Of a DNA stretch of 64,000 nt, positions 2,929-26,298 are shown piece after piece (position 1 is the first letter of the stretch; every line of letters starts with the position of its first letter). A model generated the notes under the pieces. It had not been told where the DNA came from and did no database searches. It saw only the letters and a list, made by a program, of their open reading frames with translations. The stretch lies in assembly GCA_046563655.1 (NCBI GenBank), contig CM102286.1:496001-560000 (forward strand). The letters run 5' to 3'. The position numbers and the translations under genes were made by a program. Origin of the DNA: Yuukianura sp. NJ FZ-2021 (lineage: Eukaryota).

Positions 2929-5297
2929 ATGGATTCTATCCCAAATGAAGTAGGTTCAACTTTCTTAATTTACTTGAACGAAATTTACCAATTCAACAAT
3001 TCCTAGAGCAAATTATTTGTACTCGATGATGGCCTGACTTTGAAAATTAATGCTGATTTTAAGTGCCAATTTCCTGATTCGACGCAGTTCTTAGGTTAGG
3101 ATTGGTCTGGACATGCGCGTGAGGCTCTTAATTAAAAAAAGACTGGCGTTTGAAATTACTAAGGACTGTGCAAGATCAGCACATGCGCAGTCGCATAATC
3201 TGTAATTCCAGGGGCAAAGTTAGTAGTTTTCAAAGTGAGTTGATGGTGAGGGACTGACGGCCCAAAGAAGAAATATTTATTTATAGTTCCATCTCCCCGT
3301 AATGTTAGCGAAATCAATATCTTTGACTTTAGTATTACTAAATATTTTTTGATTTTCCCATACCCTTAATGTTAATTAAATAAATATTTTGAGGTTTTCG
3401 ATTAAAGATATTTAATATTTGAATATTTCGCTTGTTTTAATGAAATATTTTTTTCATGTATATGACCAAACCTTGTTTCAGATACTGCTTCCAATCATCG
3501 GTTCTTTGGGAAAGGAGGAAATTCCTAAAATGCGTCTCGTGAGTAAGCGTTTCAACCTACTGGCAACGGAATGTGTACAAAAATTGTGTCAAGTCAAGTT
3601 CACAGAGGACTCCGACATTGCCAAATTTATCACAATGTTTGAAAACAAAACGGTTGTTCCGTTTGAAAGATTTGAGTTTAGTAACGATCTATTGGATGGG
3701 AGCCAGCCTTTGGAGCAGTTTTGTCTCAAGTTTGGGAAAATTATTAAATACTGGGGTGTGTTTGGGTTCGAGCGCTGGGTCTATCTGGAGGAGGTTTCTA
3801 TTTCAGAAAACCTGCAAATTCTACTGGAAAACTGCGTCAACGTAGAAGAAATCGACTACTCAATTGTGCTTGAGAGATATGCAGAAATCGACAAACCTAA
3901 CATTAACATTCCTGTACTCCGAAATTTGAAAACCATAATAATCATGTGGTTCAACGTCGAGAACGAAAATTTGCTTCCTCTTCTTCATCAAATTGTTGAA
4001 ACTGCTCCAAATCTACGGAGAGTTTCAATTGAAAAAATAAAATACAGTTACTCGTCACCTGTGATTCTCTGTGATACTTTAAATCAACTGTACAACATGA
4101 ACGGAACAGTTTGCATAAAAGTCTTGGATATTTCTGTTGCGCTTCCGGCGGAAAATATTGGGGACGTGCAAAAGTTGTTTACAATTTCAACACAATTTAC
4201 TATTGTTGATTTGGCCCTGAAGATACGTCTAAATGACCGTGACCTAGAAGAAATACCTCAACAAGTAGAACTTTTATCAAAATGGATTCAACAGCTAACG
4301 TCTGTTCGCATGCTTTATTTGGCATACAACAATGACATGCCGAACCGCAATGCGAATGACCCGCCAGAAGTTCCAATTGCACTGCCGCTTCATCCGCACG
4401 CGAATATAAAATGCTTATACTTGGAAGGTTTGATGTTTGCATTATACGTTCCAGTTCCAAGTCAATCAACGGAGTTTCCATCACTCACATCGCTCACCTG
4501 CAATCACGGCAATACCCATAACTTCATTTTTTCTGGATGTGTTTTTCCAAATGTGAAAGTTGCAACAATCAGTTTAAAAACGGAAGAAGAGTGTGAGGAG
4601 TGGCCACTCATGTTGCCAAATGTTGAAGAATTGTTTGTCCGCTCTAAAACGCTGAAGGGGATTTTCCGATTTCCGAAGTTAAGGAAACTGGATATCTCAC
4701 TTCGTACTGATGATGATGATGATGATAATCCTGATGACTATCTTCAGGTTTGTGAACAACACTGGGACAACCTTACAGGTGGCGCTGAGTATATTTCAAA
4801 TAGTAGAATTAGCAGTTTTCCGGTAAAGAGTATTGGCACATCGGATTCGATGGAGACATTTCGGAATTTGCCTCGTGAGTGTCATGACGTTTTGTTTAAG
4901 TTTTGAATTTAATTTTGCAGGATTATGTGTTATTTGGTTCATTTTAGTACTGACGCATTTAAAATTTTCCGGCGAAACCGTTGGGTGCTGGAAAGGAATT
5001 GCTTACGCAAGTAAAACTAGACAATTACGATGCCTTGAAGAACTTGCGTTCAGTAAGGAGTATAGCATTGTGAGTGTTGAATTGCTTAATGCTACAGTAC
5101 GAATCGAACTGTTGAAAATAATTATCACGAATGTTTGTTAAAAACTGTTTATTAATTTGTGAAATGTAAATTTGGGGTTTCAGGAGGAGCCATACCGCAC
5201 AGAACTGATGACGGACCAACCCTCATTGCGAATCTTGCCTGATCCATTTCTCTTTTTTTCTGATTTTTGGGACTGGACTGACGATTTTGATATTTAG
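2929..5297 (+). CDS. F-box/LRR-like protein, copy 2
   Basis: Same 21-nt first exon at 2929, long exon (ORF 3419-4906), and last exon 5184-5297 homologous to copy 1. Confidence 0.75.
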
Positions 5298-6318
5298 AGA
5301 GTAATTGCAAACCGAAATATTAGAGCAAATTATAGAACATAAATATAGATTATATACACTAGACTAAGGTAAACCTCAAATTTCAATTTGAAAATGTCAC
5401 TTTTCAAAAAAGTGTTTTCAAAAAATGGTCTTGTTTTCAAAAATTTAGAGTGCGAGGTGTGAGCAGGGCTTGAGAGTGGCCGACGCGTCGATTATGCCGT
5501 TGGTTGGAGAGAAGAGGACTGACTTGATTCTTAGTGATCACATCAACAGTGACTACGAACACGCTGAGCTTTAAATTTCAAAAAAAATTGAAATTTAAAA
5601 AGTTTAATTTTAGGATTTTGAATATTTAGTAAGCAAAGTCAACAGCTATAAACAAAACGTTTTTAGAAACATTTAGAAACGTTTTCTTTGTAAAAGCAAA
5701 GTTGGTCTATCCTTCAACACACCAAAAATGAAAACCGTTAAAACTTGGTTTTATTTTAACACAAAATTGCCTCTTGACTTATTAATGGTTATTCAATGTT
5801 GAAAATTTAGTCAAATGATGTCCTTACCAATCCTAATTGTATGATCAGATTGATTTTTGATTTTCTTCACTAGATTTTTTGTCGAACACAATTTTTTCCA
5901 TCAAGTCATAAACTAAAAGTTAAGTTGTTAAAATTATATGAGTCAGAAGTCAGTGAGTTGTACTGCGTCAAGTACTAGCTACGACGCAAATGAGCAAGGC
6001 AGGTAATTTCCATTATCAATTTACATAGTTCATTGGGTGATAAGTTATAGCCGTTAGCGAATGAATGAATGGCTGACTCAACCACTCAACTATTGATACT
6101 TTTCAGTCAAATAAAACTTCTATCAGGCAGTCTTGTCAGTCCAAGCTCTTCAAAAATTGAAAAAACGTTTTTTTGTGGCAGAACCTGAAACTTCGCACTT
6201 AATTTTCCAGAAAGCGAACTCGACGATTAATGAAGGACCAGAAATCACAACCATCACACAGAGTGTACTACAGAAGTGAATTCGTTGAATTAAGGAACAC
6301 ATTTCTGATCACAACGAC

Positions 6319-8499
6319 ATGGATTCCATTCCAAATGAAGTAGGTTCAACTTAACATAATTTACTTAAACTTAATTGACACACTCACCAATGCCTAAAAC
6401 AAATTAATTCATATTTGATGATGGCCTGACTTTGAAAATTAATTACCGATTTTTAAATTCGTAGTAAATAAGCCACTGCGCATGTTCTGATCCGTTGCAG
6501 TTTTTGCTAGGATTCATCTGCACATGCGCGTGACACTTTAAATAAAAAAAACATTTTACTATAAATTTTTTGATTTTCCCATTTTCTTAATATTAATTAA
6601 GTAATTATTTTATGATATCTGAAGGTTTTTGATCAAAAATATGTAACATTTAAATCTTTCGCCTGTGTTAAGGAAATATTTTTTCATGTACATGAGTATG
6701 ACCAAATCTTGTATTTCAGATACTCCTTCTAATTCTTGCTTCTTTGGAAACGAAAGTCATTTCGAAGATGCGTCTCGTCAGTAAGCGCTTCAACCTACTG
6801 GCAACGGAACGTGTACAAAAATTGTGTCAAGTCAAGTTCACAGAGGACTCTGACATTGCCAAATTTATGACAATGTTTGAGAACAAAGCGGTTGTTCCGT
6901 ATGAAAGGTTTGAGTTCACTGAAACTCTTTTGGTGTATGGCCAGGCTTTGGAGCAGTTTTGTCTCCAGTTTGGGAAAATTGTCAAATACTGGGAAGTCTT
7001 TGGGTGGAATCCGGCGGAATCGTTAGCAGAGAATTCTCTTTCAAGAAACATGGGAATTCTACTGAAAAACTGCGACAACGTACAAGAAATCTCAATTATG
7101 GCTGAGAGAAATAAGGACATCGGGAAACTTACTAACATTCCTGTACTCCGAAATTTGAAGACCATTACAATCCCGTTGTTCGAAAGCGAGAACCAAAATT
7201 TGCTTCCTCTTCTTCATCAAATTGTTGAAAATGCTCCAAATCTGCAGGATGTTGCCATTTATGATCTGGTAAACGGCAAGGCGTCGTCGCTTGTCATTCT
7301 CACAGACATTTTAAATCAACTGTACAACATGGACGAAATAGTAGTCTACATACTACGGTTGAGTACTTGGCTTGACCTTCTGCTAACAAATATTGGTGAC
7401 CTGGAAAAGTTGTTCACAATTTCAACAGAATTTAGTATTGATGAGTTGCAGTTGTGCATACGTGTAATAGATCGTGACCCGGTACGAGTACCTCAACAAG
7501 TAGAACTTTTGTCAAGATGGATTCAACAGATTCGCAAGGTTTCGTTGACATACTATGACATGCCGAATGACAATGCTCTTGACCTGCCTCAAGTTCCAAT
7601 TGCTCTGCCGCTCTATCCGCATGCGAATTTGAAACACTTGGACCTGCGGGTTGACAATTTAGTATTATACGTTCCTGTTCCAAGTCAACCAACGGAGTTT
7701 CCAGCTCTCACAAAACTCATCTGCAATCTACGCAACACCAAAAACTTCATTTTTTCTGGCTGTGTTTTCCCAAATGTGAAATTTGCTCAAATCTATTTAA
7801 AGACAGAAGCAGAGTGTGAGGAGTGGCCACGCATGTTGCCAAATGTTGAAAAATTGTTTGTCAGTTCCAAAACGCTGAAGGGGATTTTCCGATTTCCAAA
7901 GTTATGGAAACTGGACATCTCCGTTGACCGTGGCGATGATTTGTGTGGTTATCATCGGGTTCGTAAACAAAACTGGGACAACCTTACGGGTCACGATGAC
8001 ACCTCGATGGAGACATTTCGGAATTTGCCGCGTGAGTGTCAATGTGTTGTTGTCATTTTTTTATTAATTTTATTATGTTTGTTATTAGTTTTGAATTTAA
8101 TTTGGCAGGATTTATGTGATAACCTTTGGTTTATTTTAGTACTGACGCATTTAAGGTTTACCAACGAAACGGTTGAGTGCTGGACGGGAATTGTTTACGC
8201 AAGTAGAGCTGGACAATTACGATGCCTTGAAAAACTTACTTTCAGTCAGAAGTTTATTAGCATTATTGTGAGTGTTGATTTAGTTTTAATAATTACTAAA
8301 TACTACCGTTGAAAGAGTTTAAAAATGTTGGAAAAAAATAATTATGACGAATTGTGATTAAAAACTGTTTATAAATACATACTGAAATGTAAATTTTCAA
8401 TTTCAGGGGGGGCCATGCCGCACGGAATTGATGAAGTTGCAACCCTCATGGCGCATCCGCCCTTGTTCCTTAACAGAATTCGGTTTCAGAGACAAGTAA
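6319..8499 (+). CDS. F-box/LRR-like protein, copy 3
   Basis: First exon at 6319, long exon from 6720, last exon 8407-8499. Highly similar to copy 1. Confidence 0.75.
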
Positions 8500-8774
8500 G
8501 TACAAAGTTCAATGGCTTTCATGTACTTTGTTTCTTTAAATAAGTAAACAAAAGTAAATTTAAGTAAATAAAATAAATCAAATAATTTAAATAGGAAAAC
8601 CACAAAAACAATTGACAATATGTTTTGGTAATCTCATTCCGATTGTGTTTTGTGTTTGTGCCTAACCAAAATATTTACGAATATGACTCACAATTATCAG
8701 CAATTTTGAGAGAAAAAAGGAATTTGTAGCACTTTCCACTTTTATTATCTGAAAAACCGTTCATTTCACTCGTG

Positions 8775-10187
8775 TCATTTGAGATTGCTGCCATCTAATT
8801 TGAATTTGGATTGCTTAGCGGCGATTTGATACAAATTTCGAATTCCCCCGCCTCCAAACAGGTATGCAATATCCTGAAATAGTGTGGATTCAACTGCAAA
8901 TGGCGGCAGTTTGTTCAGGATTTCCTTAGGAATGTATTGGCGGAGAGGCCAAATAAATTGTAAGCCGAATTCCAAAAGGTTGTTCTGCGCACACTTCAAT
9001 GCGTCTGTGCCAAAGTAAGTCACGTGATCAACAAAGCCTAGAAAAGTGTTGAAAATGGAGTAAAGTCGACCGCGGGACAGTCCGCAGTCTGGATCTTCAT
9101 ACACTGCGGTTGAGCAGTAGTGGGCAGTAGTTCGATTCCCACTGGGGTCAAAGTTCAAAAAAAGTTCGTTGTGCTGGTGGTAGTAACCGGCGGGGAAAAT
9201 ACGGGCTGGAGCGTCATCTCGGTTGACCACTCGTACCGAAATGATGTCTAGACTGTTGATGTAGTCGACGAATGCCTTGTTGCCAGTTCGTGGTTGACCG
9301 TAAGTGTACAACTCAATGGTTGTACGCGGGAAAATGTTGTTGTACTTTAAATAAAATGTGGCGATGAGTGCCAATGCCCCTGCGAGACTATAACCTGAAA
9401 TTCAAGGTCAAAATTGAAATGTGCGAAAAGTTGAAAATTTGGACTTATTTACATTGGCGCTGTTGCCAAACGTAAATTGGATTAAATGCGTTAATGATGT
9501 TATAGCTTTACCTGTGACGATGAGTTTGTAAGTTGGGTACAAGCCGACCGTTTGCCTTATGTTTTTCAAAATGTGACCCCAATCGGCATTCACCATTTCC
9601 AGAAACCCGCTGTGAATTCTAATTTTCGTTCCGTTGACTTTGTTTAGTCTCAAGTCAAAATTCTGAATAGTATTGGCAACATTGTAGGCTTGTCGAAATG
9701 TGAGCACGATTTCTTGTCTGCGGGGATCAACTGTTACCATCCACTTCGTGTGATGTTTTAAGTTGTTGTGAATTTTAAAAATTTGAATGTGACCACCAAG
9801 AACTTTGCAATATGGACAATCCCATCTCTCTAAACTCAATTCACATGTAACTACAAGTGTGTAGTTATAGTAGTACATGACGGATTCCAGTGATGGTCTT
9901 CTGACATTGACTTGACCTGTGACGTGACCCAGATTTGACCTTTCATCTCCATTTTTCAGTTTCCAGTATCCCGATGATCTTAGTATGCTGTTTGTAGATC
10001 TCCTGAAATCTTCTACTGGATCATACTCTATTCTGGAATTTCCAGAAGGAAACAGAGACGGAAACGCACTTTTCAAAAAATGGTTAAAGAAAGTTGTACC
10101 AAAAGAAAAATTCTCCTGCCCAAACACAGGGTTGACAAAAACTAAAACAGTCAAAACTAAAATTTGAAAATGCAGAGAGAGACGCAT
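8775..10187 (-). CDS. Secreted class-3 lipase, copy 1 (intron 9395-9511)
   Basis: Signal peptide, HSGF, nucleophile motif G|YSLAG split by a phase-1 intron, YTYGQPRTGN, NRDD (Asp), DHVTYFG (His). Confidence 0.9.
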
Positions 10188-10802
10188 GGTTTCAAATGTG
10201 CGTATGCTACTCTTTACACAACAAAAAGTAAAATAAGAATAAAGTTTTGAATTTTAGTTAATTAGCTCAACGTTTTTTCCCGACTTTTACTTAAGCTTGA
10301 CCTTTGATGTTTTACGAGACAAACTTTTGGCCCAATGAACATGTTAAAGTACCGTGATCCAATTCACATCATTGTAATTTTCTTGCTATTGAATTAGCAG
10401 TTAAATTTTAACTAATTACATAATGAAAATATGAGTTACAATAAAGTAAGTTACATAAATGAAAAAAAAAACCAACAAGAGTTTGTACAATGTGAGCAAA
10501 ACTGTGAAAACAATTTTCTTATCAATAAATCTAATTCACAACACGAAAAAAACTTTTAAAAATCCCATTCATGATAAAAGAAAACGTAGAGAAAATGGCA
10601 GAAATTCTATGTATTCTTGAGACTTTTAGGTGCATTGCAAACCGGTGCTTGTCTTAAACAAAAAATTGTACAACCTGATTTTTTCAGAAAAAAATCTTCT
10701 TCCCTTCAACCGTTAAAAATAAAACTCTCAGTTTTTTTGAAATAGTTTCTACTTCTAATCACACACCAAAATTGGCATAAAAAATCGCTGATTTCGCTTT
10801 GT

Positions 10803-12499
10803 TCACTTGAGATTATAGTTCTCTAATTTTGATTTGGATTGTTGCGAAGCGATTGTATACAAATTTCGAATTCCCCCGCCCTCAAACAGGTAGGCAAGAT
10901 CCAGAAGCAAAGTAGTCTCAACTGCAAATGGCGGCAGTCTGGCCAGAAGTTCCTGAGGAATGTGCTGGCGTAGTGGCCAAATCGCTTGTAAACCAAATTC
11001 CAGAAAGTTGTTCTGCGCACACTTGATTACATCTGTGTCAAAGTAGGTCAAATGGTCAACCACGGCCAGAAGAAGGCTGAATAAGGAGTAGATTGGACCA
11101 CGGGATTGTCCGCAGTCTGGGTCTTCATATACTGCGGTTGAGCAGTAGTGGGCAGTTCGATTCCCACTGGGGTCAAAGTTCAAAAAAAGTTCGTTGTGCT
11201 GATGGTAGTAACCGAGGAAGGCTGGAGTAAACCGAGATCCAAAGTCACCTCGATTGACGACGCGGACTGAGATGATGTCTAGACTGTTGATGTAGTCGAC
11301 GAATGCCTTGTTGCCAGTTCGTGGTTGACCGTAAGTGTACAACTCAATGGCCGTACGTGGGAAAATGTTGTTGTACTTTAAGTAAAATGTGACGATGAGT
11401 GACATTGACCCGCCGAGACTATGACCTAAAATTCAAGGTCAAAAGTCAAAATTGAACTGTAACGAGGTGCGGTGTTGCCGAATTTAGAATTGAGTTAGGT
11501 GCCTTATATGAAGCAAAACGGAGATGCAATTTTTTGGGATTAAAATACTTTTTACATCAAGTTTTGGACGTAAATTTCGAATCTGAAATTTGTTCTAGCG
11601 GGCACTCGCTGTTGCCATTTTAAATCTAGATTTTGGTTACCAATTTTAAAGATCACGTTGAAAGGTCAAAGTCAGCGATGTTGAAAAAGTTAAGTTTGAT
11701 TGAAACTAAAGATTTTAAAAGTCAAGAATAGCATGAGCGTAATCGTCAAAATCAAAAGTTTTTGGTTTGTTTTATAAATATGTTTTCGCTGTTGCCAAAC
11801 TTCACTTTTGGTTGGGTTTTTACCTGTAATGATGAGTTTGTAAGTTGGGTACAAACTGATCATTTGCCTTAGGCTTTTCAAAATTTCCGCCCAATCTGCG
11901 TTGACCATTTGCAGAAACCCGTTGTGAAGAGCAAATTTCGTTCCATTGAGTTTGACCAGGCCCATGTCAAAAACCTGGAGGAAAACGCCGACATTGTAAC
12001 CAGGTCTAAATGTCAACACGATTTCTTGTCTCCGGGGATCCACAGTGACCATCCACTTCGTGTGATGTTTTAAGTTGTTGTGAATTTTAAAAATTTGAAT
12101 TTGACTACCAAGAACTTTGCAATATGGACAATCCCATCTCTCCAGACTAGATTCACACATGATCACAAGTGTGTAGTTAAAATAGTACATGACAGACTCT
12201 AGTGATGGTCTTCTGACATTGACTTGACCTGTGACGTGACCCAGATTTGACTTTTCATCTCCATTTTTCAGTTTCCAGAATCCCGATGATCTTAGTATGC
12301 TGTTTTTGGAGTTCCTGAAATCTAGTACTGGATCATACTCTGTCATGGAATTTCCAGAAGGAAAAAGAGATGGAAAAGCACTTTTCAAAAAATGGTTAAA
12401 CAGAGTTCTACCAAAAGAAAAATTTTGCTGTCCAAACCCGGTTTTTCCAAAAACTAAAACACTGAAAACTAAAATTTTCAAATTAAGAGACAGACGCAT
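10803..12499 (-). CDS. Secreted class-3 lipase, copy 2
   Basis: Two exons with spliced GHSLGG, YGQPRTGN, NRGD, DHLTYF. Confidence 0.9.
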
Positions 12500-13677
12500 G
12501 GCTTCCAAACTCCCTTTGCTAGTCGTTGCACAATGAAAATTAAAATGAAACTAAAAGTGTTTACTTTTACTTTTTTTCAGACTTTTAAACGTCTTTAAGC
12601 CTTTGATATGCTTCTTGAGGCAAGATTTGGTTTTGGCCCAATGAAGATGTTGGTAAAAGCAACCGTAATCCAATTCACATGCATTACACCCCAACTTTCT
12701 TGTGGTTCAATTAACATCTTAACTAATTAAGAGACTCACATAAACACCAAAAAACAATAATGATAAAATTAGTACAAAACAAGGAAAAATTGGGCAATTT
12801 GCCATAAAATCATTTTGTAGCAGGAAATCTAATTCACAACAACAACAAAATGTACCAAAAATCCCAGCAGTAAATGATTACCAAACTACTAAACCTAGCA
12901 ATGATAAAAACAAATTGATAAAAAAAACCTTACAATTAGAGAATTCAAAGCAAAGATCCGGGAAGCGGAATTGGATGAAGTTCACGGCCAGGGTTGTTTA
13001 AACCAAAAGAATGTTTCTTTTTTCTTAATAGGTTATGCCATATAAACTCCTCTTCTTTAAAAAATTGTTTGTTTGGAATTTTTTGCGCCATTTGTCGAGC
13101 TCGAGCCTTGTAAAGTAAATAGGATTGGCCCAAAAAGCTGTTTTTTCTTGTGTTTTTAAAAACTAGGCTTTTCATTTGCCTCACGGCAAATGAAAAGCCT
13201 AGGTTGTAGCGTAACGTAACCGAATAGATAGACTAAATTCAAAACGAAAACATCCGAGTAAAAATTAGCAAGGATACTACTGATGCAACTCCGGTTTAAC
13301 GCATCCCATTCCTTGCGTTTTCTATTTTTTGCTCCAGTGAGAGATAAGAGAAGGCTGTACCTGAACAGTACACACAGTAGCAAAGGGAAGGGGAAAGCAG
13401 GGAGCTCCCCTTGACTTTTTGTATTGGAAAGAGTGTGAGGACACAGTGACTGAGTGACGCACACCCGTTTGCTTCATTTACTTATGTTGATGATTAGAGT
13501 CAATGAAATGCAATAACCTGTGACGGAATTTCTACACGTGGCCGTTAAAGCAATTTTGGTGACGGCTAATTAATTAAATCTGCCTAGGCTCTCCAATTCA
13601 TTTGAAAAATTTTATGATTTTGAAATTTAAAAATGTTGATGTGGAATATTTAGTACACAAGAGTCATGACTCATGAG

Positions 13678-13873
13678 CAGACCTGCCAAAAATATGTAGT
13701 TCCCTTGCCTGTAATGCTAACAAAATCAATGTTTCGGATCTTTTTCTTACTAAATATTTATTTATTTTCCATTTCCTTAATGTAAAGGTCGTAAATATTC
13801 CGAACTTTTCCAGTTAATATTGCATTTATTTAAATATTTTGCTTGTTTTTAGTAAATATTTTTGGCAGAGCTG
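13678..13873. mobile_element. hAT-type MITE
   Basis: TIRs cagacctgccaaaaatat / atatttttggcagagctg. 8-bp TSD ctcatgag at 13670-13677 and 13874-13881. Confidence 0.8.
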
Positions 13874-14043
13874 CTCATGAGTCAAACAAAACGGCGTTTT
13901 TCTTGAAGAACAAATTGTAATAACAATTGATTTTTAGAACAAGTATTCTCCGTCTCTCCAACAGAAAATAAAACTCAGTTCTTAAATATTTTTATTTGAA
14001 AACTCTAAAAATTTGGCGCCAAAAATCACTGCCGTTGCTCATG

Positions 14044-15806
14044 TCATTTGAGATTATTGTTTCCTAATTTTGATTTAGCTGCGATTTGATACAAATTTCG
14101 AATTCCCCCGCCTCCAAACAGGTACGCAATATCCTGAACCAGTGTGGTTTCAACAGCCAATGGCGGCAGTCTATCCAGGATTTCCTTGGGAATGTACTGG
14201 CGCAGTGGCCACACTGCTTGCAATGCCAATTCCAAAATGTTGCTCTGCGGACACTTTAATGAGTTTGTGCCAAAGTAGGTCAAATGGTCAACAACGCCTA
14301 AAAAGAAGTTGAAGATGGAGTAGATTGGACCACGGGATTGGCCACAGTCTGGATCTTCATAGACAGCTGTTGAGCAGTAGACGGCAGTTCGATTCCCACT
14401 GGGGTCAAAGTTCAAAAAAAGTTCGTTGTGTTGGTGGTAGTAGCCGAGGAAGGCGGGAATAAAACGGGATGGAGTGTCATCTCGGTTGACCACGCGGACA
14501 GAGACAATGTCTAGACTGTTGATGTAGTCGACGAATGCCTTGTTGCCAGTACGTGGTTGGCCGTAAGTGTACAACTCAATGGTCGTATGCGGGAAAATGT
14601 TGTAGTACTTTAAATAAAATGTGGTGATGACTGATAATGACCCGCCGAGACTATAACCTGAAATTCAAGGTCAAAAGTCAAAATCAAAAACAACGACACT
14701 GTTGCCAAGCTTAGCCTGGAGTGAGATAAAAGGTTTCAACGTAACACTTAGCGCTGTTGAGAAACTTAAGTTAGTGTCGGATTAACTGCTTTTAACAGTG
14801 TTGATGGATATCCACTTTTTTAGCATTTCGTCCAGGATATATCCACTGGATAAATGGATAAATCCGGATGAAATCCAGTTTCTGATGAACGGAATTGAGT
14901 TTCGTCCGGAAGAAACCAAAAAAATCCGGATATATCCAATACTTTGGAGGGGAGTGGAAGAAATATTTTATCCATCCACCAACACTTGCTTTTAAATAGC
15001 AATTCAACCGTGAAGATTAGCGACGTTGCCACTTTTAACCTTGATTTATGTTTATGCTTTTAAAAGGTCATGTTGAAAAGCTAGCTCGAATGTTAAGGAG
15101 TTCGCTGTTGCCATACTTCACCTTTGGTTGTTATAGCTTTACCTGTGATGATGAGTTTGTAAGTTGGGTACAACCCGACCGTTTGCCTTAGGCTTTTCAC
15201 TATTTCTTCCCAGTCTGCGTCGATCATTGCCAGAAACCCGCTGTGACTTGCACATTCCGTTCCATTGAGTTTAGTCAGCTTGAAGTCCAAAAGCTGCAGG
15301 TAATTGGCAACATTCAAGCTAGGTCGAAAGGTCAACACAATTTCTTGTTTGCGGGGATCAACTGTGACTATCCACTTCGTGTGATATTTAAAGTTGTAGT
15401 GAATTTTAAGTAGCTGGATGTGACCACCAAGGACTTTGCAATGTGGACAGTCCCATCTCTCCAGACTGGATTCACATGTTAGTAAAAGTGAGTAGTTCCA
15501 GTAGTACATGACAGACTCCAGAGATGCTCGTCTGACTTTCACTTGACCTGTGACATGACCCAGATTTGACCTTTCATCTCCATTGCCCAGTTTCCAGTAT
15601 CCCGATGATCTCAGTATACTGTTTGTGGATTTCCTGAAATCTTCTAATGGATCGTACTCTGTTCCGGAATTTCCAGAAGAAAACAGAGACGGAAACGCAC
15701 TTTTCAAAAAATGGTTAAACAGAGTTCTACCAAAAGAGTCCCGCCCAAATCCGGGTTTGGCCAAAACTAAAACAGCCAAAACTAAAAAACACAAATTCGG
15801 ACGCAT
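14044..15806 (-). CDS. Secreted class-3 lipase, copy 3
   Basis: Two exons with spliced GYSLGG, NRDD, DHLTYFG. Confidence 0.9.
14796..14987. mobile_element. hAT-type MITE (CAGTGTTGRTGGATA family) in lipase 3 intron
   Basis: TIRs cagtgttgatggat / atccaccaacactt. Perfect 8-bp TSD gcttttaa. Internal tggata/tatcca motifs. Confidence 0.8.
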
Positions 15807-16490
15807 GGTTTCAAAAGTGCTACTCGCCGAACAATCGAAGCTAAAATAAAAATAAAACTTTTGACTTTAAATTAATTTTTAGTTTAAATTTCCTTCACAC
15901 TTTTAGTTCAGTTTAACCTTTGATATTTTTTGAGACAAAATTTTGGCCCAATTCACATAAATTGCAATCTAATTTTCTTGTGACTGAATTAACAGTTATC
16001 TTTTAACTAATTAAGAGAGTCACAAAAAAAAAAACAAAGACAAAAAAATAGTAAATTGTGTACAATGCGAGCAGAAAGTGGTCAAAGTGCCAAAATTTCA
16101 TTTCAGCATTCTTGCTGGGGCTTCGCCCCACACATCCGTTCATCCGTCCTAATCACAATTTACACTTTTTACCACTTGTTAAGATCAAAGCCACAACCCC
16201 ACCTTTCACCACAACCTATGCAAAAACCGATTTTTTTTGTGTAAATCGAAGTACATGAAGTTAACGGAAGTAGGAAGTGTTCTTTAAAACTTTTTAAACG
16301 TTTAAAACTATTGACATAACGAAATGGAGTTGGAAGTTATGAAAAATTTGTTCAATTCAGATTTTTTTTGATGAATACACAATAAATATGGCAGATTGAG
16401 AAAGGATATTTGAAAAATATATTCTATGGAAAATAGTTATTCGCACTTAAAAAAGATTGGCGCTAAAACTCACTCATTTCTCTCATGTCA

Positions 16491-18350
16491 TCAGAGATTG
16501 TTGTTAGCTAAATTCGATTTGGATTGTTTAGCCGCGATTTGATACAAATTTCGAATTCCCCCGCCCCCAAAAAGGTACGGAACATCCAGAAACAATGTGG
16601 TTTCAACTGCAAATGGCGGGAGTCTGTCCAACATTTCCTTAGGAATGTACTGGCGTAGTGGCCAAACTGCTTGTAACGCAAATTCTAGAATGTTGCTCTG
16701 CGCACATTTGAATGCATCTATTCCAAAGTAAGTTACGTGGTCAATAAGGGCCAGAAAAAAGTCCATAATGGAGTAGATTGGGCCACGGGATTGTCCGCAG
16801 TTTGGATCTTCGTAAACTGCGGTTGAGCAGTAGACGGCAGTTCGATTCCCACTGGGGTCAAAGTTCAAAAAAAGTTCGTTGTGATGGTGATAGTAACCGA
16901 GGAAGGCGGGAGAAAACCGAGATCCAATATCATCTCGGTTGACGACTCGGACTGAGACAATGTCTAGACTGTTGATGTAGTCGACGAATGCCTTGTTGCC
17001 AGTTCGTGGTTGACCGAAGGTGTACAACTCAATGGTCGTATTTGGAAAAATGTTGTTGTATTTTAAATAAAATGTGACGATGAGTGACATGGACCCGCCG
17101 AGACTCAGACCTGAAGGTAAATGACAAAAGAACTTTCAGATGTCAAACTTAGCCTTGTTGCCAAATTTAACTTTAACAAGTTCAACAGCTTTCAAGGTCA
17201 AATTTGAACGGGGAGGTGCTGTTGCCAAATTTAAACTATAGCAGGGTTGCCAATTTTCAAAATCAAATGACAGTTAATTTATAAGTGACTTGCGCTGTTG
17301 CCAAACTTCACTACGCTTAAGTTAACTTTACTATCTGGCAACATAAGCTGAGAAAAAAACATTCCAGTTTTTTTTAGTGAGTCATCAGCAAGAATGCAAA
17401 CATTTTTGCAAAATCTCAAGTTACCCCAACTAAAAATCATTCAAAAAAAAGTTAAGAATGTTTTTCAAAGATAAAAATTCAAAACTGTGATCGTAGTTTA
17501 CTTGTCCGCTTTTGTAAACGTCATTTATTTTAAATATTTTATAATTATTATTATTCCAACAGTTTGGAATGCAGTTGGGGTTATTTGAGATTTTTGAAAA
17601 AAGTTTCGTTTTTCGTGGATCCCTCAGTAGAAGAACTCCAATGTTTTGTTTTTTTTTGGTTTGTTGATTAGTACCTGTGAGGATTAGCTTGTAAGTTGGG
17701 TACAACCCGATCGTTTGCCTTAGGCTTTTTAAAATTTGAGCCCAATCTGCATTGACGACCTGCAGATACCCACTGTGAAGTGCAAATTTCGTTCCGCTCA
17801 GTTTGATAAGTTTCACATCAAAATCCTGAAGAAAAGTGGCAACATTGTAGCTAGGTCGAAACGTCAACACAATTTCTTGTCTCCGGTGGTCAACTGCGAC
17901 CATCCACTTCGTGTGATGTTTTAAGTTGTTGTGAATTTTAAAAATCTGAATGTGACCACCAAGAACCTTGCAGTATGGACAGTCCCATCTCTCCAGACTT
18001 GATTCGCACATGAGCACAAGTGTGTAGTTCCAGTAGTACATGACAGATTCTAGTGATGGTCGTCTAACATTGACTTGACCTGTGACCTGACCCAGATTTG
18101 ACCTTTCATCTCCACTGCCCAGTCTCCAGTATCCCGATGATCTAAGTATACTGTTTGTGGATTTCCTGAAATCTTCTACAGGATCGTACTCTGTTCCGGA
18201 ATTCCAAGAAGGAAAGAGAGACGGAAACGCACTTTTCAAAAAATGGTTTAAGAAAGTCCTACCAAAAGAAAAACTTTGCTGTCCAAACCCGGGTTTGCCA
18301 AAAACTAAAACACTGATAACTGAAATTTGAAATTTCAGAGAGGGACGCAT
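16491..18350 (-). CDS. Secreted class-3 lipase, copy 4
   Basis: Two exons with spliced GLSLGG, NRDD, DHVTYFG. Confidence 0.9.
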
Positions 18351-18995
18351 GGTTTCCAAAGTGCGTATGCTACTCAATCACAATCAAAAGTAAAATAAGA
18401 ATAAAAGTTTTGACTGTTACTTAATTAGTTTTTTTTATCAGAGTTTTTACTACAGTTTAACCTTTGAAGTTTTTTTTTGGCAAAAATTTTTGGCCCAATT
18501 ATGAACAAGTAATTAAAAATAACCGTGATCCAATTCACATAAGTTTCACTCTAATTTTTTGTAATTGAATTAGCAGTTACATTTTAACTAATTATGGGAG
18601 TAAAATTTTCTGAAAACATCAACACAAAAAAAAAGGAAATTTATACAATGCGAGGAAAAATTGGTAAAAATCGTAGCAATGACAAAAGAACAGTAAGTAA
18701 CAATGATAAGAAAGTAACTAAAAAACACAAAAATACGACAAAGTACTAAAAAAAAGTTGTAAACAAAGTTCCAAAAAGCGATTTTTGTAATTTAAAATTT
18801 GAGTTTAAAGGTTTGTATTTTTACTACACAAAGTCAAACAAAACAATTTCTTGAACAGGGAACTGTAAAACTCGATTTTTCATAAAAAAAAGACTTCTTC
18901 CCTTCAACTGACAACTGAAACTCAGTTCTTAAAAAAAGTTTTGATTTGAACACTAACCAAATTTGGCGCCAAAATTATACGTTTTGACGAAATTT

Positions 18996-20431
18996 TCACT
19001 TGAGATTGTTTTTACCTAGTTTCGATGTGGATTGCTGAGATGCGATTTTATACAAATTTCGAATTCCGCCGCCCTCGAACAGATACGCAAGATCCAGAAT
19101 CGCTGTGGTCTCAACTGCCAATGGCGGCAGTTTGTTCAGAATCTCCTTAGGAATGTACTGACGTAGAGGCCAAATCGCTTGTAAACCGAATTCCAGAATG
19201 TTGTTCTGCGCACACTTAGATATGTCTATGTCAAAGTAAGTTCCATGGTCAACAGCGCCTACAAAGAAGTTGAATAAGGATAGTGGACCACGGGATTGTC
19301 CGCAGTCTGGATCTTCATATACTGCAGTTGAGCAGTAGTGGGCAGTTCGATTCCCACTGGGGTCAAAGTTCAAAAAAAGTTCGTTGTGATGGTGGTAGTA
19401 ACCGAGGAAGGCGGGAAAAAACCGGGCTGCAAAGTCACCTCGGTTGACAACTCGGACTGAGATGATGTCTAGACTGTTGATGTAGTCGACGAATGCCTTG
19501 TTGCCACTTCGTGGTTGACCGTAAGTGTACAACTCAATGGTTGTACGCGGGAAAATGTTGTTGTACTTTAAATAAAATGTGGCGATGACTGACATTGCCC
19601 CGCCGAGACTATGACCTGAAAGTCAAGGTCAAAAGTCAACACTGAACTGTAAAGAGGTGCGGTGTGAAAGGTCAAAGTCATGGATGTTGCCAAATTTAAA
19701 TTTGATATAGAATAAGAATTTTAAATATGAACTTCACGTTTGGTTGGGTTTTCACCTGTAATGATCAGTTTGTAAGTTGGGTACAACCTGACCGTTTGCC
19801 TTAGACTTTTTACAATCTCCGTCCAATCTGCGTTGACCATTGTTCGAAACCCGCTGTGAAGTGCAAAATTCGTTCCATTGAGTTTAACCAGCCCTAAGTC
19901 CAAGTCCTGAAGAAAAGTGCCAACATTCCAGCTTGTTCGATAAGTCAGCACAATTTCTTGTCTGCGAGGATCCACTGTGACCATCCACTTTGTGTGATGT
20001 TTTAAATTGTAGTGAATTTTAAAAATCTGAATGTGACTACCAAGAACTTTGCAATATGGACAATCCCACCTCTCCAGACTAGATTCGCACGTGAGCACAA
20101 GTGAGTAGTTGTAGTAGTACATGACAGATTCTAGTGATGGTCGTCTGACATTGACTTGACCTGTGACGTGACCAACATTTGACTTTTCATCTCCATTTTT
20201 CAGTTTCCAGAGTCCCGATGATCTTAGTATGCTGTTTTTGGAGTTCCTGAAATCTAGTACTGGATCGTACTCTGTCATGGAATTTCCAGAAGGAAAAAGC
20301 GACGGAAACGCACTTTTCAAAAAATGGTTAAACAGAGTTCTACCAAAAGAAAAATTTTGCTGTCCAAACCCGGTTTTCACAAAAACTAACACACTGAAAA
20401 CTAAAATTTGAAAATTCAGAGACAGACGCAT
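18996..20431 (-). CDS. Secreted class-3 lipase, copy 5
   Basis: Two exons with spliced GHSLGG, NRGD, DHGTYF. Confidence 0.9.
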
Positions 20432-20970
20432 GGTTGCAACACTTCCGATGCAACTAGTTGCACAATTAGAAGTGAAATGAAAATAAAAGTTGCGACTTTT
20501 ACTTAATTGCCTTCCTTTTTTTTCGTACTTTTACTTTTCATGTTTTTGTGAGAGAAAATGTTGGCCCAAGTTACAAATTTGTTGTTAAAAGTGATCCAAT
20601 TCATATAAATTTCACTCTTAATTTTTGTGGTTGAATTAGCAGTTACATTTTAACTAATTGTGTGCGTAACAAATTAAAAAAAACAACACAAAAACTGAAA
20701 TTTAATACAATGAAAAATTGGTCAAGGTTCAAAAAAGATTTCGCATCAAAAAATGTTATTCACAACAATAAGCAAAACTACTCTAAATCATTGCAGTAAT
20801 GACTAAAATAGTACTGAAAATCATAACAAGTAATTAAAAAAAAAACACAAAAAGCGATCAAGTAACAAAAGTTTAAAACGAAAGTTACTAAAAAGTTGTT
20901 ATTTTTCTTAGATTTTTTGTTTAATAGGTTTGACATTAAATAGAAATTTAACAATTTTTTTAAAAATTTT

Positions 20971-22273
20971 TTAGCTTCTTTGCATGGCGGCTCCAAATAT
21001 TTTGCTAGCTCCACGTCCAGCTACTAGATAGTTAATGTCTGCTAAAACTGTTGACCGCATGCCGAATGCTGGAAGATGCTGGAGCAGTATTTTTGGAAGA
21101 TACTTGCGGAGTGGAAAGAGTGCTTGCATGAAATATTCAACATAGTTTTCCTGTAAACATTTAGTGGCGTCTACTCCAAAGTAGGTCGTGTGTTCCACAA
21201 AACCAATAGCAAACTGGGTAGGAATCACAGATAAAATGGGGCCTCGTGATTGGCCGCATTCCGGAGCTTCGTACCGGTCGGTAGAGCAGTACCGGCCAAA
21301 AATCGTTCCGGTTTCGTCGGTATCGAGAAACAGTTCATTGTGTTGATGGTAATAGCCTAAGGCTACTGGCAGTAACCGGGTCACAAAATCGTCTCGGTTG
21401 ACGATTCTTGCAGAGGGAATGTTTAAATTGTTCATAAATTCGGCAAATGCGCGGTTGCCAGCTCGTGGTTGTCCGCTGCTGTAAAGTTCCATGCGCATGT
21501 CAGGCAAAACGTTCCGAAATTTAAACAGAAACACAGTGACTGTTGCAAGTGAACCACCGAGACTGTGACCTTGAAACACAAAAAAGGTCAAAAGTCAAAA
21601 GATCAAATTTTTTGGAAATTCAAGTGACCTTGAAAATAAATTTCTTACCTACAAAATTCACTTTGAAGTTGGGGTAAACTGAGAAAAGTTGTGAAAGAAC
21701 TTTGGCGATTTTTGGAAAATCGTCATGTGCCGCCTTCAGCGTTCCTTTGTGAATCTGAATATCCGAGTTTTCATCGACTTTTTCCATGTTAAATAAAAGA
21801 TTGGTTAAAACGTTTGCTAAATTTTGAGTTTGGCGAAAAGTAACAACTATTTCGCTCCTGAGGTCATCCAAAGTGACCATCCACTTTGTATGAAAAGTCG
21901 GGTTGACATGAAGCGCGATGATTCGAATGTGCCCACCAAGCAATTTGCACTCATCGCAGTCCCATCTCTCCAAACTCGATTCGCAACTAACTGCAACTGA
22001 GTAGTTAAAGTAGTACTGTGCAGAACTCAACGACGCGCGTAAGGCGCGTACTGGAGTTTTCACTAGGGCAAGTGCAGTTGTCTGATCACCGTTAATAAAT
22101 TTGTTAAGTCCAAGAGCAGTTAAAAAGTCAAATTTCGTTTTTCTGTAAACTTCAACCGGGTCGTAGCGACTGAAATCCGAAAAAGTTTGTGATGATTTTA
22201 AATGTTCCGTGATCCAACTTTTTGAATTTGGAATTAAAATACAACTGAAAGTTAAAAGTTGAAAGAGACGCAT
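20971..22273 (-). CDS. Secreted class-3 lipase, copy 6 (most divergent)
   Basis: GHSLGG, SGQPRAGN, NRDD, EHTTYFG, with the same intron position as the other copies. Confidence 0.9.
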
Positions 22274-22911
22274 GTTGTTAGTTGGACATGCGCCGAAGAA
22301 GTGTCAACTATGTAGAAGAGGCATCAATTTTTTTTCTGCACTACAGCCAGTTTTAATTGTTTTGTGCAAAGCTGTGAGAGAGTTGCATTACATTTTCATT
22401 TTTTGAGTAACAAAATCTTGATCTTCAAAGTTACTTAATTGGTAACAGCACTAAAATTTTAATATTTTTGAAAGTTAAAACTACGCGTACCGTGACAGTG
22501 ATAAAAAATCTCTGAGATTTACACCCACAAAAAAAAACTAAACACATTCGAATTTTGAAAGTAAAAACATTTCAACTGTGAAAGATACACCGTTGTAAAA
22601 AATTTTGTTCAACAAAAAAAGTATAAAATTCAACAAAGTTTTAAAAACTCACTTCAAATTCGAAACGTGTAGATTTTTTTCGTTCTTGCGTAACACATTC
22701 GTTACATTTTTGCTCTCAACACGCTTACGAAAATGTGACGTTTGACCTTGCAGATAATTTTTTTTACACAATGCACTTTAAAACAGCACATCAATTTGTC
22801 GACAAAAAAGTTAAGTGAGTATACTTTTAGTTTCGCACGCAAGGATTTTGCTTCTCTTGTGAAAAAAAAATTGTTTCTGAAATCAGTTTTTTTTAAATTT
22901 TGTTTTTCATA

Positions 22912-25900
22912 ATGGCGGAAAAGTTGAAAATTTTGTTTGTGCCGATCGATGCTGTTGGACACATTAACTGTGTGATAGGCGTGGGTCAAGTTTTGGTTCA
23001 ACGCGGACATTCTGTTACTGTGGCCATAACAAGTTCGTCGAAAGGGAAGCTTCGACCATTTGGCTTCGACGAAATGGTTTACTATGAACAAGTGGAGGAA
23101 ATCAAAGGACAGCAGTATCAAAACAAAATCATGTCGAAAATGGAACATGCAATGGCCTTGACCCCAATTGAAAAATGTGGACAATTGAATCCACAATTGT
23201 ACAGTGGATTAATCGAGCAATTGAAAGCGGGAAATTCAAAAATTGCACAAATAATTGCACAAGTTCAACCGGATTTGATTTTGGCCGATGGCATTTGTTT
23301 CCCGGCAGTTGTGGCACAAAAAGGCAAGTAAATTTAAAATGTGTCATTTTTGAAACAAACAATTTTTTTTTGAAATTTCGAAATTTGTAGAAATTCCATG
23401 GATGGGTTTCATTTCCTTGAATCCGCTGGGTTTTACTGTTGGTGATGTTCCGCCAGCATACAGTGCTTACCCCACCGAACCAAAAGACGCCGACCTCTGG
23501 ACACAATTTATTGAAAAAACGAAGCCCGCGATGTTGCCGATCTTTGAAGATTTCAAATCCTGGGTTTTGAAAAATGGCGGGCCAGAGTTGACCTATACCG
23601 GCTCTCCGTTTTGGACACAACATTCTTCCTGGGGTACTCTCTACATGTTCCCTCAGGAATTGGACTACGTTCGAAAACTCCCGCCGAATTTCCATCGTTT
23701 TGATACTTTCATGCGCCAAGAGAGCGGGGAATTTGAAATTCCTGAAAAGTTGGTCAACCTACCCGGGAAATTGGTTTATCTTTCGATGGGAACCATTGGC
23801 TGCTCGAATCTCGGCTTGATGCGGAACCTCATTCGGATTTGTTCAAAAGCTCCACATCGCTTCATCGTTTCAACAGGTAAAATTTTTAAATTCGGTAACT
23901 TTTCCCACTTTTTAATACCCTACTGTGTTTGTAGGCAAAGTAGTCGCGTAAATTGGTTTCCAAAAAGTATATTTCACAAAATAGGAGTACAAAATTAGCA
24001 TAAATGAAAACTACCTTATTTCTCGTACACTCGTGTTAGTTGAGTCGAGTCCTTTTGACGGACGGTGTATCAGTCGTTACGGCGTGCACGGCATTTGTGC
24101 CTGAATAGTCTTTTTGCAGTCTCGGTGAAGGTGGCTCGTCCACCTTCTTGGCCCATTCTCGTTGCTTCGTAATGAATGGCAGTGGAGCACTCTTTTTTCT
24201 GAAAATATGAAAATTATGGTGCTCAAAACGACATGAGTTATAAAAAGTGTCTCCCGGTCATACCGTTCTGATTCGTCGTCTATCATGTACTTAAAGATTG
24301 CGACGTGATCCTCTGGACTGAGTAGCTGCAGTGGAACAACAAGCTTAGAAAAGTCTGACACATCCATCACTGGGTACCGGATCCACTCAACCAAATCTTG
24401 CAGGACATCCCGAAGAGTTGGTCCAGTCGATTCAAGGCCCCTGCGCTTGCACATTTCTTTTGCCCAACTGTTTTATAAATGAAATGTATTAGTTCTTATA
24501 AATAATAGAGCCTAAACGTTAGGTTTATAAAGCTTACCGGATGACGGCATTAAACACTTGAGTTTCGTTTTTTGCAGCCAATGAATCTGCTGCCAGTAGT
24601 ATGCACAAATTCCCATACGAGAGTTTCAGAACATCATTGGAATCCAAGATAGTTGCCGCGTTCCTAAAAACGGATTTACTAAGATTGTATTGTAATCTAG
24701 TATATACTAAAAAGTGAATTAATTTGTACTTTGTCAGTATTTGAAACTAACTTCAAAATGAAAGTCCGTGCTTTACCGCGCAAAGGTTCATTTTCATACT
24801 CTCCTGCCAATTCGTAAGCGGTAACTGCCGTTTGTTCAGTCATTTGGCCCAGAGTTTTCCAGCACCATTGTTCCAAATCCCGTACTTTGAACGCGATAGC
24901 ATATTTGAGCACGTTGGCTGCGTGCGCTAATTCCGAGTTTTGCCCGGTGTAGACAAACTGAAAGTTTAAAATTGTGAAACTAAAGATCAACCTTGATGTT
25001 TGAACCACTTAAACTAATCTACCATTTTGTATAAAGTTACCTCCAGAAACTGTTCAAATTCCTGTTTGCTTCCCTCTCCAACGCGAAAAATCATAGGTTT
25101 CGGCGGGTTCGGCTCTTTTCGGTTTTTGAACATTTGTTGAAAAACTTTGGAATGGATACTGAGCTGGAACTGATGACCTTTGACCTCCTCCGCGTTTGGT
25201 CCAACGAGAAAGGTCACATCAAAGGGATTAACAAGTCCATTTCTGAGCAGATCAATCTGTCGACTCCTGTGGTTTGTTTCCCGCCAATCCGCCATCTTTT
25301 CCCGCCCTTCCCAACAACTTGTAGTTTACGCAAAAATATCTTTCGTGTGTCCTTTCCTTGCTACAGCTGATTCCCGGACTAACAATAAATACTGTGCAAC
25401 CGGGGGCCTGACTAAAAGTCTGAAGTGCAATCTGATGTGACTCAACTTTGTCAGGAAACTACAATAGACAATTCCCCCGTGACTCCCGTCACCTTTTTGT
25501 TCATTTTTACCACTGGAAAATGCTGGAAAGTCACTGAAAAAAAACTACCTTTTATTCCACACTACTATTCCACAGAATCGTCAGAAGTGCCAATAGTTAT
25601 GGCTAAATGCTGGGAAATTATAAAAATAACTAAAACCAATTATAAAAACATAATTTTTTATAAATAATAGAAAAGAAATTATAAAAATCCAAGGTCAATG
25701 TGTATTACAGGTAAAATGCCTTTGACGACTTACACCGTCAAATGCGCAAAGAAAATTTAATTGCGTGAGACGATAAATAAATATGGTTGTGGAGAAGACA
25801 AATTTTGCTACTATATTTGTCTCAACTCTACTCCGCGCAATTTTAAACGTTAGATGGTTTGACAGGGGCTTATCCAAAAAACTAAAACCAGTTTTAATTC

Positions 25901-26298
25901 TTTATGCAGGACCACTGGGTGATCAGTTGGAAGTTGGCGATAACATGTGGGGGGCCAAGTGTCTACCACAAACAAAAGTCATCCCATTGGTGGATCTAGT
26001 AATTTCACATGGCGGCAACAACACCGTCACGGAAACGTTTTACTTTGGAAAACGACTCTTGATTCTCCAACTATTTTGTGACCAACTTGACAATGGACAG
26101 AGAGTGGCAGAAACTGGGTTGGGCTTGACCTTTGATCCCTGCAAGGTCACGGACGAGGAATTGCTGAATGCCATTGACCAACTACTTGGAGATGAACTTT
26201 TAGAAAAAAGAATGAAAACGATTTCCATTCGAATGAAGGCTTCAAACAGTACAGAAAGAGCTGCAGATTTAATCGAAAACGTTGCACGTTCAAAATGA
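22912..26298 (+). CDS. GT1-family UDP-glycosyltransferase, bacterial/mite type (exons 22912-23323, 23391-23876, 25910-26298)
   Basis: N-terminal KILFVPIDAVGHIN, VYLSMGT, and the UGT signature LPQTKVIPLVDLVISHGGNNTVTETFYFGK...DQLDN. No signal peptide or C-terminal TM. Confidence 0.9.
24036..25295 (-). CDS. BTB/BACK-domain protein nested antisense in UGT intron 2
   Basis: DVTFLVGPNAEEVKGHQFQLSIHSKVFQQMF (BTB) and LQDLVEWIRYPVM (BACK). Multi-exon with GT-AG junctions; stop at 24036-24038. Confidence 0.8.

Follow-up and report, generated by a model that had tools for sequence, protein, structure and literature searches.

The stretch of DNA analysed here, called the window below, comprises 64,000 nucleotides of the genome of Yuukianura sp. 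NJ FZ-2021 (assembly GCA_046563655.1, contig CM102286.1, positions 496,001 to 560,000). Near its start lies a tandem array of six genes, g1 to g6, encoding class-3 lipases of Pfam family Lipase_3 (PF01764). An initial annotation, made from the sequence alone, had described six intact two-exon genes at this place and proposed that they descend from a fungal lipase gene acquired by an arthropod. We built gene models from minus-strand frame pairs in the list of open reading frames (ORFs; positions 8,000 to 23,500 were inspected) and joined them at canonical splice sites. The six genes are borne out: all lie on the minus strand, the spliced proteins are free of internal stops, and the array runs from the first ATG at 22273 to the last stop at 8775, as had been annotated.

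Exon 1 of g1 (9512..10187) encodes a signal-like N-terminus, a pro-region and the first half of the lipase domain; it is followed by a phase-1 GT-AG intron of 117 nt (9395..9511) and by exon 2 (8775..9394), which supplies the triad Ser, Asp and His, a C-terminal tail and the stop. The remaining genes have the same layout. Their first exons, introns and second exons occupy 11824..12499, 11426..11823 (398 nt) and 10803..11425 in g2; 15143..15806, 14658..15142 (485 nt) and 14044..14657 in g3; 17675..18350, 17111..17674 (564 nt) and 16491..17110 in g4; 19756..20431, 19616..19755 (140 nt) and 18996..19615 in g5; and 21649..22273, 21570..21648 (79 nt) and 20971..21569 in the divergent copy g6. All introns are of GT..AG type, and the proteins from g1 to g6 measure 431, 432, 425, 431, 431 and 407 amino acids. 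In each gene the intron interrupts the nucleophile motif GxSxG after base 1 of the first Gly codon of G-x-S-L-[GA]-G, at a splice site reading AG|GT, so the common phase-1 intron that had been reported is real. Six intact frames with one common intron position are far beyond chance. Family membership is equally clear. Each of the four exons scanned against Pfam exceeded the Lipase_3 cut-off of 22 bits with 26-60 bits (E 9e-06 and 4e-14 for exons 1 and 2 of g1, 3e-06 and 3.5e-16 for those of g6), exon 2 of all six genes did so in a genome-wide profile search, and g2, compared by sequence with PDB entries, found Rhizomucor lipase as the top match of its exon 2 (E 9e-14).

The array has two tiers: g1-g5 are mutually 76-86% identical, and g6 is 43-45% identical to them. 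A tblastn search of the 64-kb window found neither a seventh copy nor a remnant. All 15 pairs of g1-g6 show a ratio of nonsynonymous to synonymous divergence (dN/dS) of 0.26-0.40. Upstream of g1-g5, 140-250 nt before the ATG, alignment reveals a non-coding block that is absent from g6 (in g1 roughly 10325..10420, minus strand); it is a candidate promoter that would have been carried along in the tandem duplications. Synonymous divergence (pS) among g1-g5 drops to 0.17 in the pro-region of exon 1 and to 0.18 near the intron, while several other segments reach 0.35-0.45; this hints at gene conversion between copies.

The motifs that had suggested a fungal lipase turned out to be less uniform than described. 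In their exact form WDCPYC and CSTAVYEDPDC each occur in four of the six proteins, YGQPRTGN and DHxTYFG each in three; the looser forms WDC..C, GQPR.GN and [DE]H.TYF are present in all six. Six cysteines (in YC, W.C..C, C..ED..C and at the C-terminus) are invariant in all copies and stand in register with Rhizomucor miehei lipase (1tgl). As a diagnosis of fungal descent the motifs served only in part, since [YF]G[QE]PR.G[ND] occurs in 15 and DH..YF in 12 of 16 nematode rows, while W.C..C occurs in none of them. Motif sharing as proof of fungal origin was thus rejected, two of the motif types being common in nematode Lipase_3. The Rhizomucor-like propeptide did not survive comparison either: the pro-region is about 75 residues long, that of g2 does not align to the pro-lipase entries 6qpp and 6qpr, and g2 exon 1 matches such entries only from residue 101 on. 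By a hydropathy heuristic all six proteins have an N-terminal peak of 2.1-3.5 and no strong transmembrane stretch, and these hydrophobic N-termini suggest secretion. Animal diacylglycerol lipase (DAGL), which also belongs to PF01764, was rejected as an identity for the array, whose genes have two exons and lack membrane segments; tblastn did not connect the array with the genomic locus L017, which is DAGL-like by its motif.

Several clusters of such genes exist in the genome, the array being one. A profile search of the whole assembly (98.7 Mb, 22 contigs) returned 21 Lipase_3 matches, which amount to 13 two-exon genes, three intronless ones (L001-L003) and one DAGL-like locus, with family copies spread over contigs C1, C3, C4, C7 and C8. 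Apart from the six genes of the window, the two-exon copies comprise an array of five on C3 and single genes on C8 and further along C4, and all 13 carry the intron at the identical codon. The C3 array (L012-L016, 0.915-0.934 Mb of that contig) retains the His before the catalytic Ser in none of its five copies, and in two of them the oxyanion motif lacks its Arg as well. Among the intronless copies L001 is the most fungus-like; it has no tail, and a histone H2B-like gene is located some 0.5 kb away (L001:2604-3056). L003 (1027-2178; C3 at 7.70 Mb) has an open frame in which Gly takes the place of the catalytic Ser and Asn precedes the catalytic His, which makes it a candidate pseudo-enzyme. 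The copy L008 adjoins a DUF3472 gene (L008:2624-3205), possibly another foreign gene.

Related loci exist in metagenomes. Of 11 loci found with the exon-2 alignment A2, five were inspected for the intron, and all five have it at the identical codon; among the others L026 is continuous, L028 fragmentary and L029-L032 distant. The five intron-bearing loci are at most 51-61% identical to the host's own copy L012 and hence come from another organism. Searches elsewhere were empty: viral contigs searched with protein P0107 gave ten pattern matches, none confirmed, and g2 exon 2 compared with longer proteins scored in none of 1800 candidates, which is weak evidence. Among sequencing runs, no RNA data set was listed as containing g2, a result that has no bearing on its expression.

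Relatives among proteins were sought by phmmer over 1.84 billion representatives, with the 150 top rows returned. Thirty rows were looked up: three come from Folsomia candida, two from the sciarid Pseudolycoriella hygida and eight from Entomophthoromycotina, and the rest have no organism label. Half of the ten rows looked up in or near the clade of the array were the Folsomia and Pseudolycoriella proteins, and eight of ten in the neighbouring clades were Neoconidiobolus, Entomophthora or Massospora. With the intronless L002 as query, Massospora, Entomophthora and Neoconidiobolus were again the top named matches, and the best nematode scored 88 bits. The profile search added no further named arthropod and returned mostly protist, nematode and unlabelled rows. 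The Folsomia (XP_021961427, XP_021966037) and Pseudolycoriella (KAJ6632650, KAJ6635787) members, which stand in NCBI under the plain name "lipase", share about 29-33% identity with g1-g6, retain RG[ST] and belong to other branches of the same supported clade; one Pseudolycoriella relative sits on a 64-Mb contig. In two database entries (P0105, P0251), gene models from the sciarid and Folsomia have two or three lipase units merged into one protein, a sign that tandem arrays of these lipases may be present in those genomes as well.

Four trees were calculated without constraints: a FastTree of 250 rows, after 22 rows with less than 70% domain coverage had been dropped; a quick IQ-TREE under LG+C20 with 84 of 294 rows; and a careful tree and an LG+G4 tree with 48 of those 84. 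The 84- and 48-row subsets were hand-picked so as to retain all groups. In FastTree the clade holding the own copies (host clade) has support 97 and joins Entomophthoromycotina with 95; the corresponding values of the quick C20 tree are 99 and 95, with 95 for Fungi. In the careful tree the own copies, Folsomia and the sciarid unite with 99/97, group with Entomophthoromycotina with 95/90 and fall inside Fungi with 98/94, and the sciarid rows group with one row of Folsomia (95/93). The LG+G4 tree gave supports of 91/88 and 96/95. Nematode rows stand outside the host clade, near protists, in all four trees, and the grouping with animal Lipase_3 that would have spoken for vertical descent was seen in none. 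In three of the four, Entomophthoromycotina rows form two branches around the arthropod clade. The nearest named non-animal sequences are lipases of Entomophthora muscae, Massospora cicadina and Neoconidiobolus thromboides (131-149 bits, 31-35% identity), in sister or parent position in all four trees.

The h index points in the same direction as the trees. Among labelled rows g1-g6 reach h of 46.5-70.0 against the best labelled nematode with a best fungal score of 131-149 bits, and so pass a Crisp-type rule for horizontal gene transfer (HGT), quoted in PMC4987106 as h of at least 30 and at least 100 bits for the best non-animal match. The closest non-animal relatives are lipases of insect-killing fungi, so an ancient uptake of the gene from a fungus of that kind is probable. 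The position of the host clade, together with Folsomia and the sciarid next to Entomophthoromycotina, indicates a donor other than Rhizomucor or Rhizopus and an old transfer common to other arthropods. Mucorales as nearest donor was rejected; they merely provide the best solved structures, and the trees held no row labelled Mucorales. The transfer originally proposed therefore stands in amended form: the nearest fungi are Entomophthoromycotina, the event predates the species, and the array of the window is one product among several.

A number of points weigh against a fungal source, and for this reason we call it likely and not proven. In approximately unbiased (AU) tests animals as one clade were rejected with p 0.012 under LG+G4 and p 0.022 with site profiles taken from the free tree, and animals plus fungi each as one clade with p 0.014 (25.3 log-likelihood units worse, profiles again from the free tree); profiles estimated in this way favour the free tree in the last two tests. 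Under the site-mixture model animals as one clade had p 0.086 with 48 rows and p 0.349 with 84, and fungi as one clade p 0.107, so only three of six tests reject the alternatives at 0.05. The best fungal match reaches no more than 31-35% identity, in an alignment of about 253 columns. Among the 22 host-clade rows that are not own copies, 17 are unlabelled, and the clade may therefore include non-arthropods. Nematodes are the sole other animals among labelled rows. Finally, among ESM Atlas feature neighbours nematode clusters score about as high as Zoopagomycota; these neighbours confirm the family and do not discriminate between donors.

If the gene had instead been inherited vertically, an ancestral opisthokont secreted Lipase_3 would have survived in springtails, sciarids and nematodes and disappeared from most other animals, and the closeness to Entomophthoromycotina would be a tree artefact. 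Branches are long throughout, animal monophyly escapes rejection in the two site-mixture tests, and nematodes (Caenorhabditis, Nippostrongylus, Steinernema) do possess secreted Lipase_3 proteins that have two motifs in common with the array. These proteins, however, reach only 67-91 bits against it, form the separate clade near protists that no free tree joins with the arthropods, and lack the W.C..C motif common to fungi; the tree with both constraints is the one rejected with p 0.014. Very many losses would also be needed, as no other insect, crustacean or chelicerate is among the named matches. We regard vertical descent as unlikely. We judge it just as unlikely that both groups received the gene from some unsampled lineage of fungi or protists, or that it passed from arthropods to Entomophthoromycotina. 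Most neighbouring rows have no organism label, the node joining the three groups lacks resolution in the careful tree, and the huge expansion of Lipase_3 in Entomophthorales (the largest enriched family of E. muscae, 348 domains; PMC11105155) makes a near match more likely. On the other hand, Entomophthoromycotina stand on two branches around the arthropods with other fungi as next relatives, which fits transfer from fungus to animal, and their tails after the catalytic His are short (11-24 residues in 13 of 13 rows, like other fungi) compared with host-clade medians of 55-82.

Contamination of the assembly by fungal DNA has nothing in its favour beyond the fungal-like sequence itself and is so improbable as to be effectively excluded. 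The host is an arthropod by its 41 cuticle-protein matches, several of them on this contig, and the Folsomia proteins as nearest named relatives point to a springtail. The lipase genes bear the marks of integration, namely spliceosomal introns, animal neighbours and copies on five contigs, and their GC content at third codon positions (0.41-0.49) lies within the range of seven neighbouring ORFs (0.39-0.55), leaving no trace of a recent foreign composition. The array is contiguous with genes for a UGT, BTB proteins, a protein kinase, calpain and an Hsp70-family protein and with a Tc1-type element, which upholds the earlier statement that it expanded beside animal genes. Contaminating DNA would also hardly account for the same gene structure at five metagenome loci of another organism, nor for named relatives in Folsomia and on the 64-Mb Pseudolycoriella contig. 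On balance we consider a fungal origin of the arthropod lipases quite likely, and with more reserve we lean towards Entomophthoromycotina as the donor.

The intron appears to be a later acquisition. Intron-bearing copies form one derived branch in the careful tree (100/99), and their relatives include the intronless own copies. AG|GT, found at the insertion point in the window genes, is the classical proto-splice site, and the corresponding sequence in the three intronless copies differs from it. The simplest reading is a gain on the branch leading to the 13 copies. Against it stands the observation that P0178 and the Folsomia models P0139 and P0249, predicted proteins on other branches, are disturbed at the intron codon; the intron may thus be older or have been gained more than once, or the intronless genes may be retro-copies.

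The active site of these proteins has been remodelled. Residue numbers are those of Rhizomucor lipase, transferred through PDB sequence alignments, with Ser144, Asp203 and His257 as its triad. The Ser-Asp-His triad is intact in all 13 intron-bearing copies. In the same copies Gly81 is replaced without exception (nine times by Pro), and yet it is kept in all 29 other rows of the clade and in 247 of 252 rows outside; His207 has become Arg in all 13, His143 is replaced in eight, and Ser/Thr82 is lost in four, including g1 and g2. In place of the FRGS oxyanion motif of Rhizomucor-type lipases, g1 to g6 read FRQA, FRPG, FRPS, FRPS, YRTS and FRQT. The related metagenome copy L022 retains RGS and four others vary, which places the loosening of the oxyanion loop within the intron-bearing branch. 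The tail after the catalytic His has a median of 82 residues in intron-bearing copies, compared with 14 outside the clade.

The R. miehei (1tgl, 4tgl) and Rhizopus (1lgy, 6a0w) lipases are the best PDB matches by sequence and, for L002, by fold. Their triad, W.C..C, GQPRxGN, C..ED..C and DH..YF stand in register with the array. They differ from it in the oxyanion motif, in His207, in the lid Trp, which the array lacks, in a pro-region that cannot be aligned and in a tail of 12 residues instead of about 80, and the array is further set apart by its animal host and the intron in the elbow codon. The fold match comes from the AlphaFold model of the intronless paralogue L002 (pLDDT 82.7), not from the spliced array proteins; it superposes on 4tgl with TM 0.89 and rmsd 2.2 A, and its tail is predicted to be helical at low confidence (pLDDT 44-67). 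Entomophthoromycotina lipases, enzymes of the pathogen secretome (PMC11105155), keep RG[ST] and short tails, unlike the array. Judged by these features, the array proteins are members of Lipase_3 that would function in the manner of a Rhizomucor-type lipase and depart from the canonical fungal subfamily in the GX glycine and the propeptide.

Variation among g1-g5 is concentrated around the active site. Variable columns make up 41 of 65 positions in the oxyanion/lid segment, Asp-loop and His-loop, compared with 56 of the 201 remaining domain positions (Fisher p 6e-7), and the ratio of nonsynonymous to synonymous differences (pN/pS) is 0.53-0.87 in those loops against 0.14-0.18 in three core segments, with the reservation that the segments were drawn after the alignment had been seen and that loops vary anyway. 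As no ratio exceeds 1, the pattern reflects relaxed or diversifying change and does not demonstrate positive selection.

These substitutions bear on function. In the GX class the Gly before the oxyanion residue is described as strictly conserved (PMC1647292); with this Gly gone from 13 of 13 copies, and the Ser/Thr hydroxyl missing from g1 and g2, lipase activity could be weak or absent. It is possible, though we hold it to be clearly the weaker option, that intron-bearing copies are no longer ordinary triacylglycerol lipases and act as acyltransferases, wax or sterol esterases or lipid-binding pseudo-enzymes in cuticle, moulting fluid or antifungal defence; this question is independent of the origin. 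The changes at Gly81, His207, His143 and Ser/Thr82 speak for such a shift, as does L003, a paralogue even without the catalytic Ser. Retention of all three triad residues in every intron-bearing copy and the low pN/pS of the core speak against it. So does the architecture of the site: in a related fungal lipase, for which Ser144, Ser82 and Leu145 are named, the oxyanion hole is described as made up of backbone NH groups of residues 82 and 145 (PMC5536023), which need not be removed by the changes. Most likely the array proteins are secreted serine esterases with differing pockets; the genes are real, look functional and are probably of fungal origin.

We propose the following history. An ancestor of at least some springtails would have acquired a gene for a secreted class-3 lipase of Rhizomucor type from a fungus of or near Entomophthoromycotina, and from this gene an arthropod family characterised by a C-terminal tail would have arisen. 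Within it, one lineage presumably gained a spliceosomal intron at AG|GT in the codon of the nucleophile elbow and was amplified by tandem duplication, now represented by the six copies described here, five on contig C3 and two singletons. The hydrophobic N-terminus would route the proteins out of the cell, where Ser would attack the lipid ester with Asp-His as charge relay. Oxyanion loop, lid, Asp loop and His loop differ between copies, and these differences probably yield a set of enzymes with different substrate preferences. The most plausible place of action is the gut, where they would digest lipids of fungi and litter; granted the rest of the explanation, we favour this role by a narrow measure. 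The sciarid members probably stem from a second transfer within the soil fauna. Acquisition from a fungus, intron gain and amplification in an arthropod form the best-supported reading, and we consider the explanation as a whole, including the secreted esterases, probable. A bolder version, speculative and in our estimate rather unlikely, holds that springtails captured a host-attacking lipase of their pathogen and later passed it to sciarids, and that one springtail lineage rebuilt it as a multigene family whose oxyanion loop is non-GX and whose active-site loops differ from copy to copy. Such a family would be a new catalytic variant among class-3 lipases, acting on new substrates (waxes, sterol esters or fungal lipids) in digestion or antifungal defence.

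Transfer of fungal genes into springtails is established as such, 30-33% of reported springtail HGT genes being fungal (PMC4987106, PMC5490193), and opportunity for contact exists, as entomophthoralean fungi infect Sminthuridae and Sciaridae (PMC10820730). Foreign genes common to springtails and fungus gnats are also on record: terpene synthases are shared by springtails, mites and sciarid flies (PMC11665903), and cluster 3 of HGT chimeras points to transfer among springtails, fungus gnats and mites (PMC13389597). These have the same patchy distribution as the lipases and belong to different gene families. The candidate donor of the lipase, a pathogen lineage, distinguishes it from the known springtail HGT genes. 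Our literature search, with most subscription papers beyond reach, found no report of a fungal class-3 lipase transferred into springtails or sciarids. The excerpts of PMC12105342 and PMC11301091 contain nothing relevant, the table rows shown in PMC9113151 list 12 mite HGT genes including a UGT and no lipase, and the available supplement parts of PMC5490193 have no match for "lipase". In the supplement part of PMC4987106 two IPR002921 rows are DAGL, and 32 of 164 "lipase" matches inspected are all of pancreatic type. As the springtail HGT tables were thus searched only in part, lipases of this clade could already be listed there. Relative to the literature searched, the candidate donor among pathogens, the occurrence in a fungus gnat as well and the remodelled oxyanion loop are new.

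Springtails are already known to carry fungal genes, for the most part carbohydrate enzymes among the cases reported; the lipase would add lipid digestion. If our assumptions are true, the specific donor was an arthropod pathogen, which offers a direct route for germ-line contact, and the lipases would extend the short list of foreign families common to springtails and fungus gnats. Within one genome the copies form a compact natural series that begins with intronless, fungus-like genes and leads to an amplified branch with introns. Lipases of the Rhizomucor type are mainstays of industry, and 13 natural variants that keep the triad and lack the near-invariant oxyanion Gly provide a ready test of what that Gly does.

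The surroundings of the array deserve brief mention. Three tandem long ORFs at 134-8312 (plus strand; 496-565 amino acids from stop to stop) have an F-box-like start and a leucine-rich body, and a Pfam scan matched none of the three. The gene next to the array (22897-26298, plus strand) encodes a UGT with no obvious signal peptide, whose top PDB matches are UGT203A2 and UGT202A2, which are spider-mite enzymes, followed by bacterial YjiC; for mites and Folsomia, UGTs of this type have been described as acquired from bacteria (PMC9113151). BTB-domain frames (about 24077-25325) lie on the opposite strand between the UGT exons. At 61005-63100 (minus strand) two long frames give the impression of a divergent ionotropic-receptor-type gene; the Pfam scan returned no match there. 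A Tc1-like element at 51747-53421 has inverted arms of 652 nt that are 99% complementary. Through these arms the transposase 5' end is duplicated on both strands, and the transposase frame (52217-53095, minus strand) enters the opposite arm and looks truncated.

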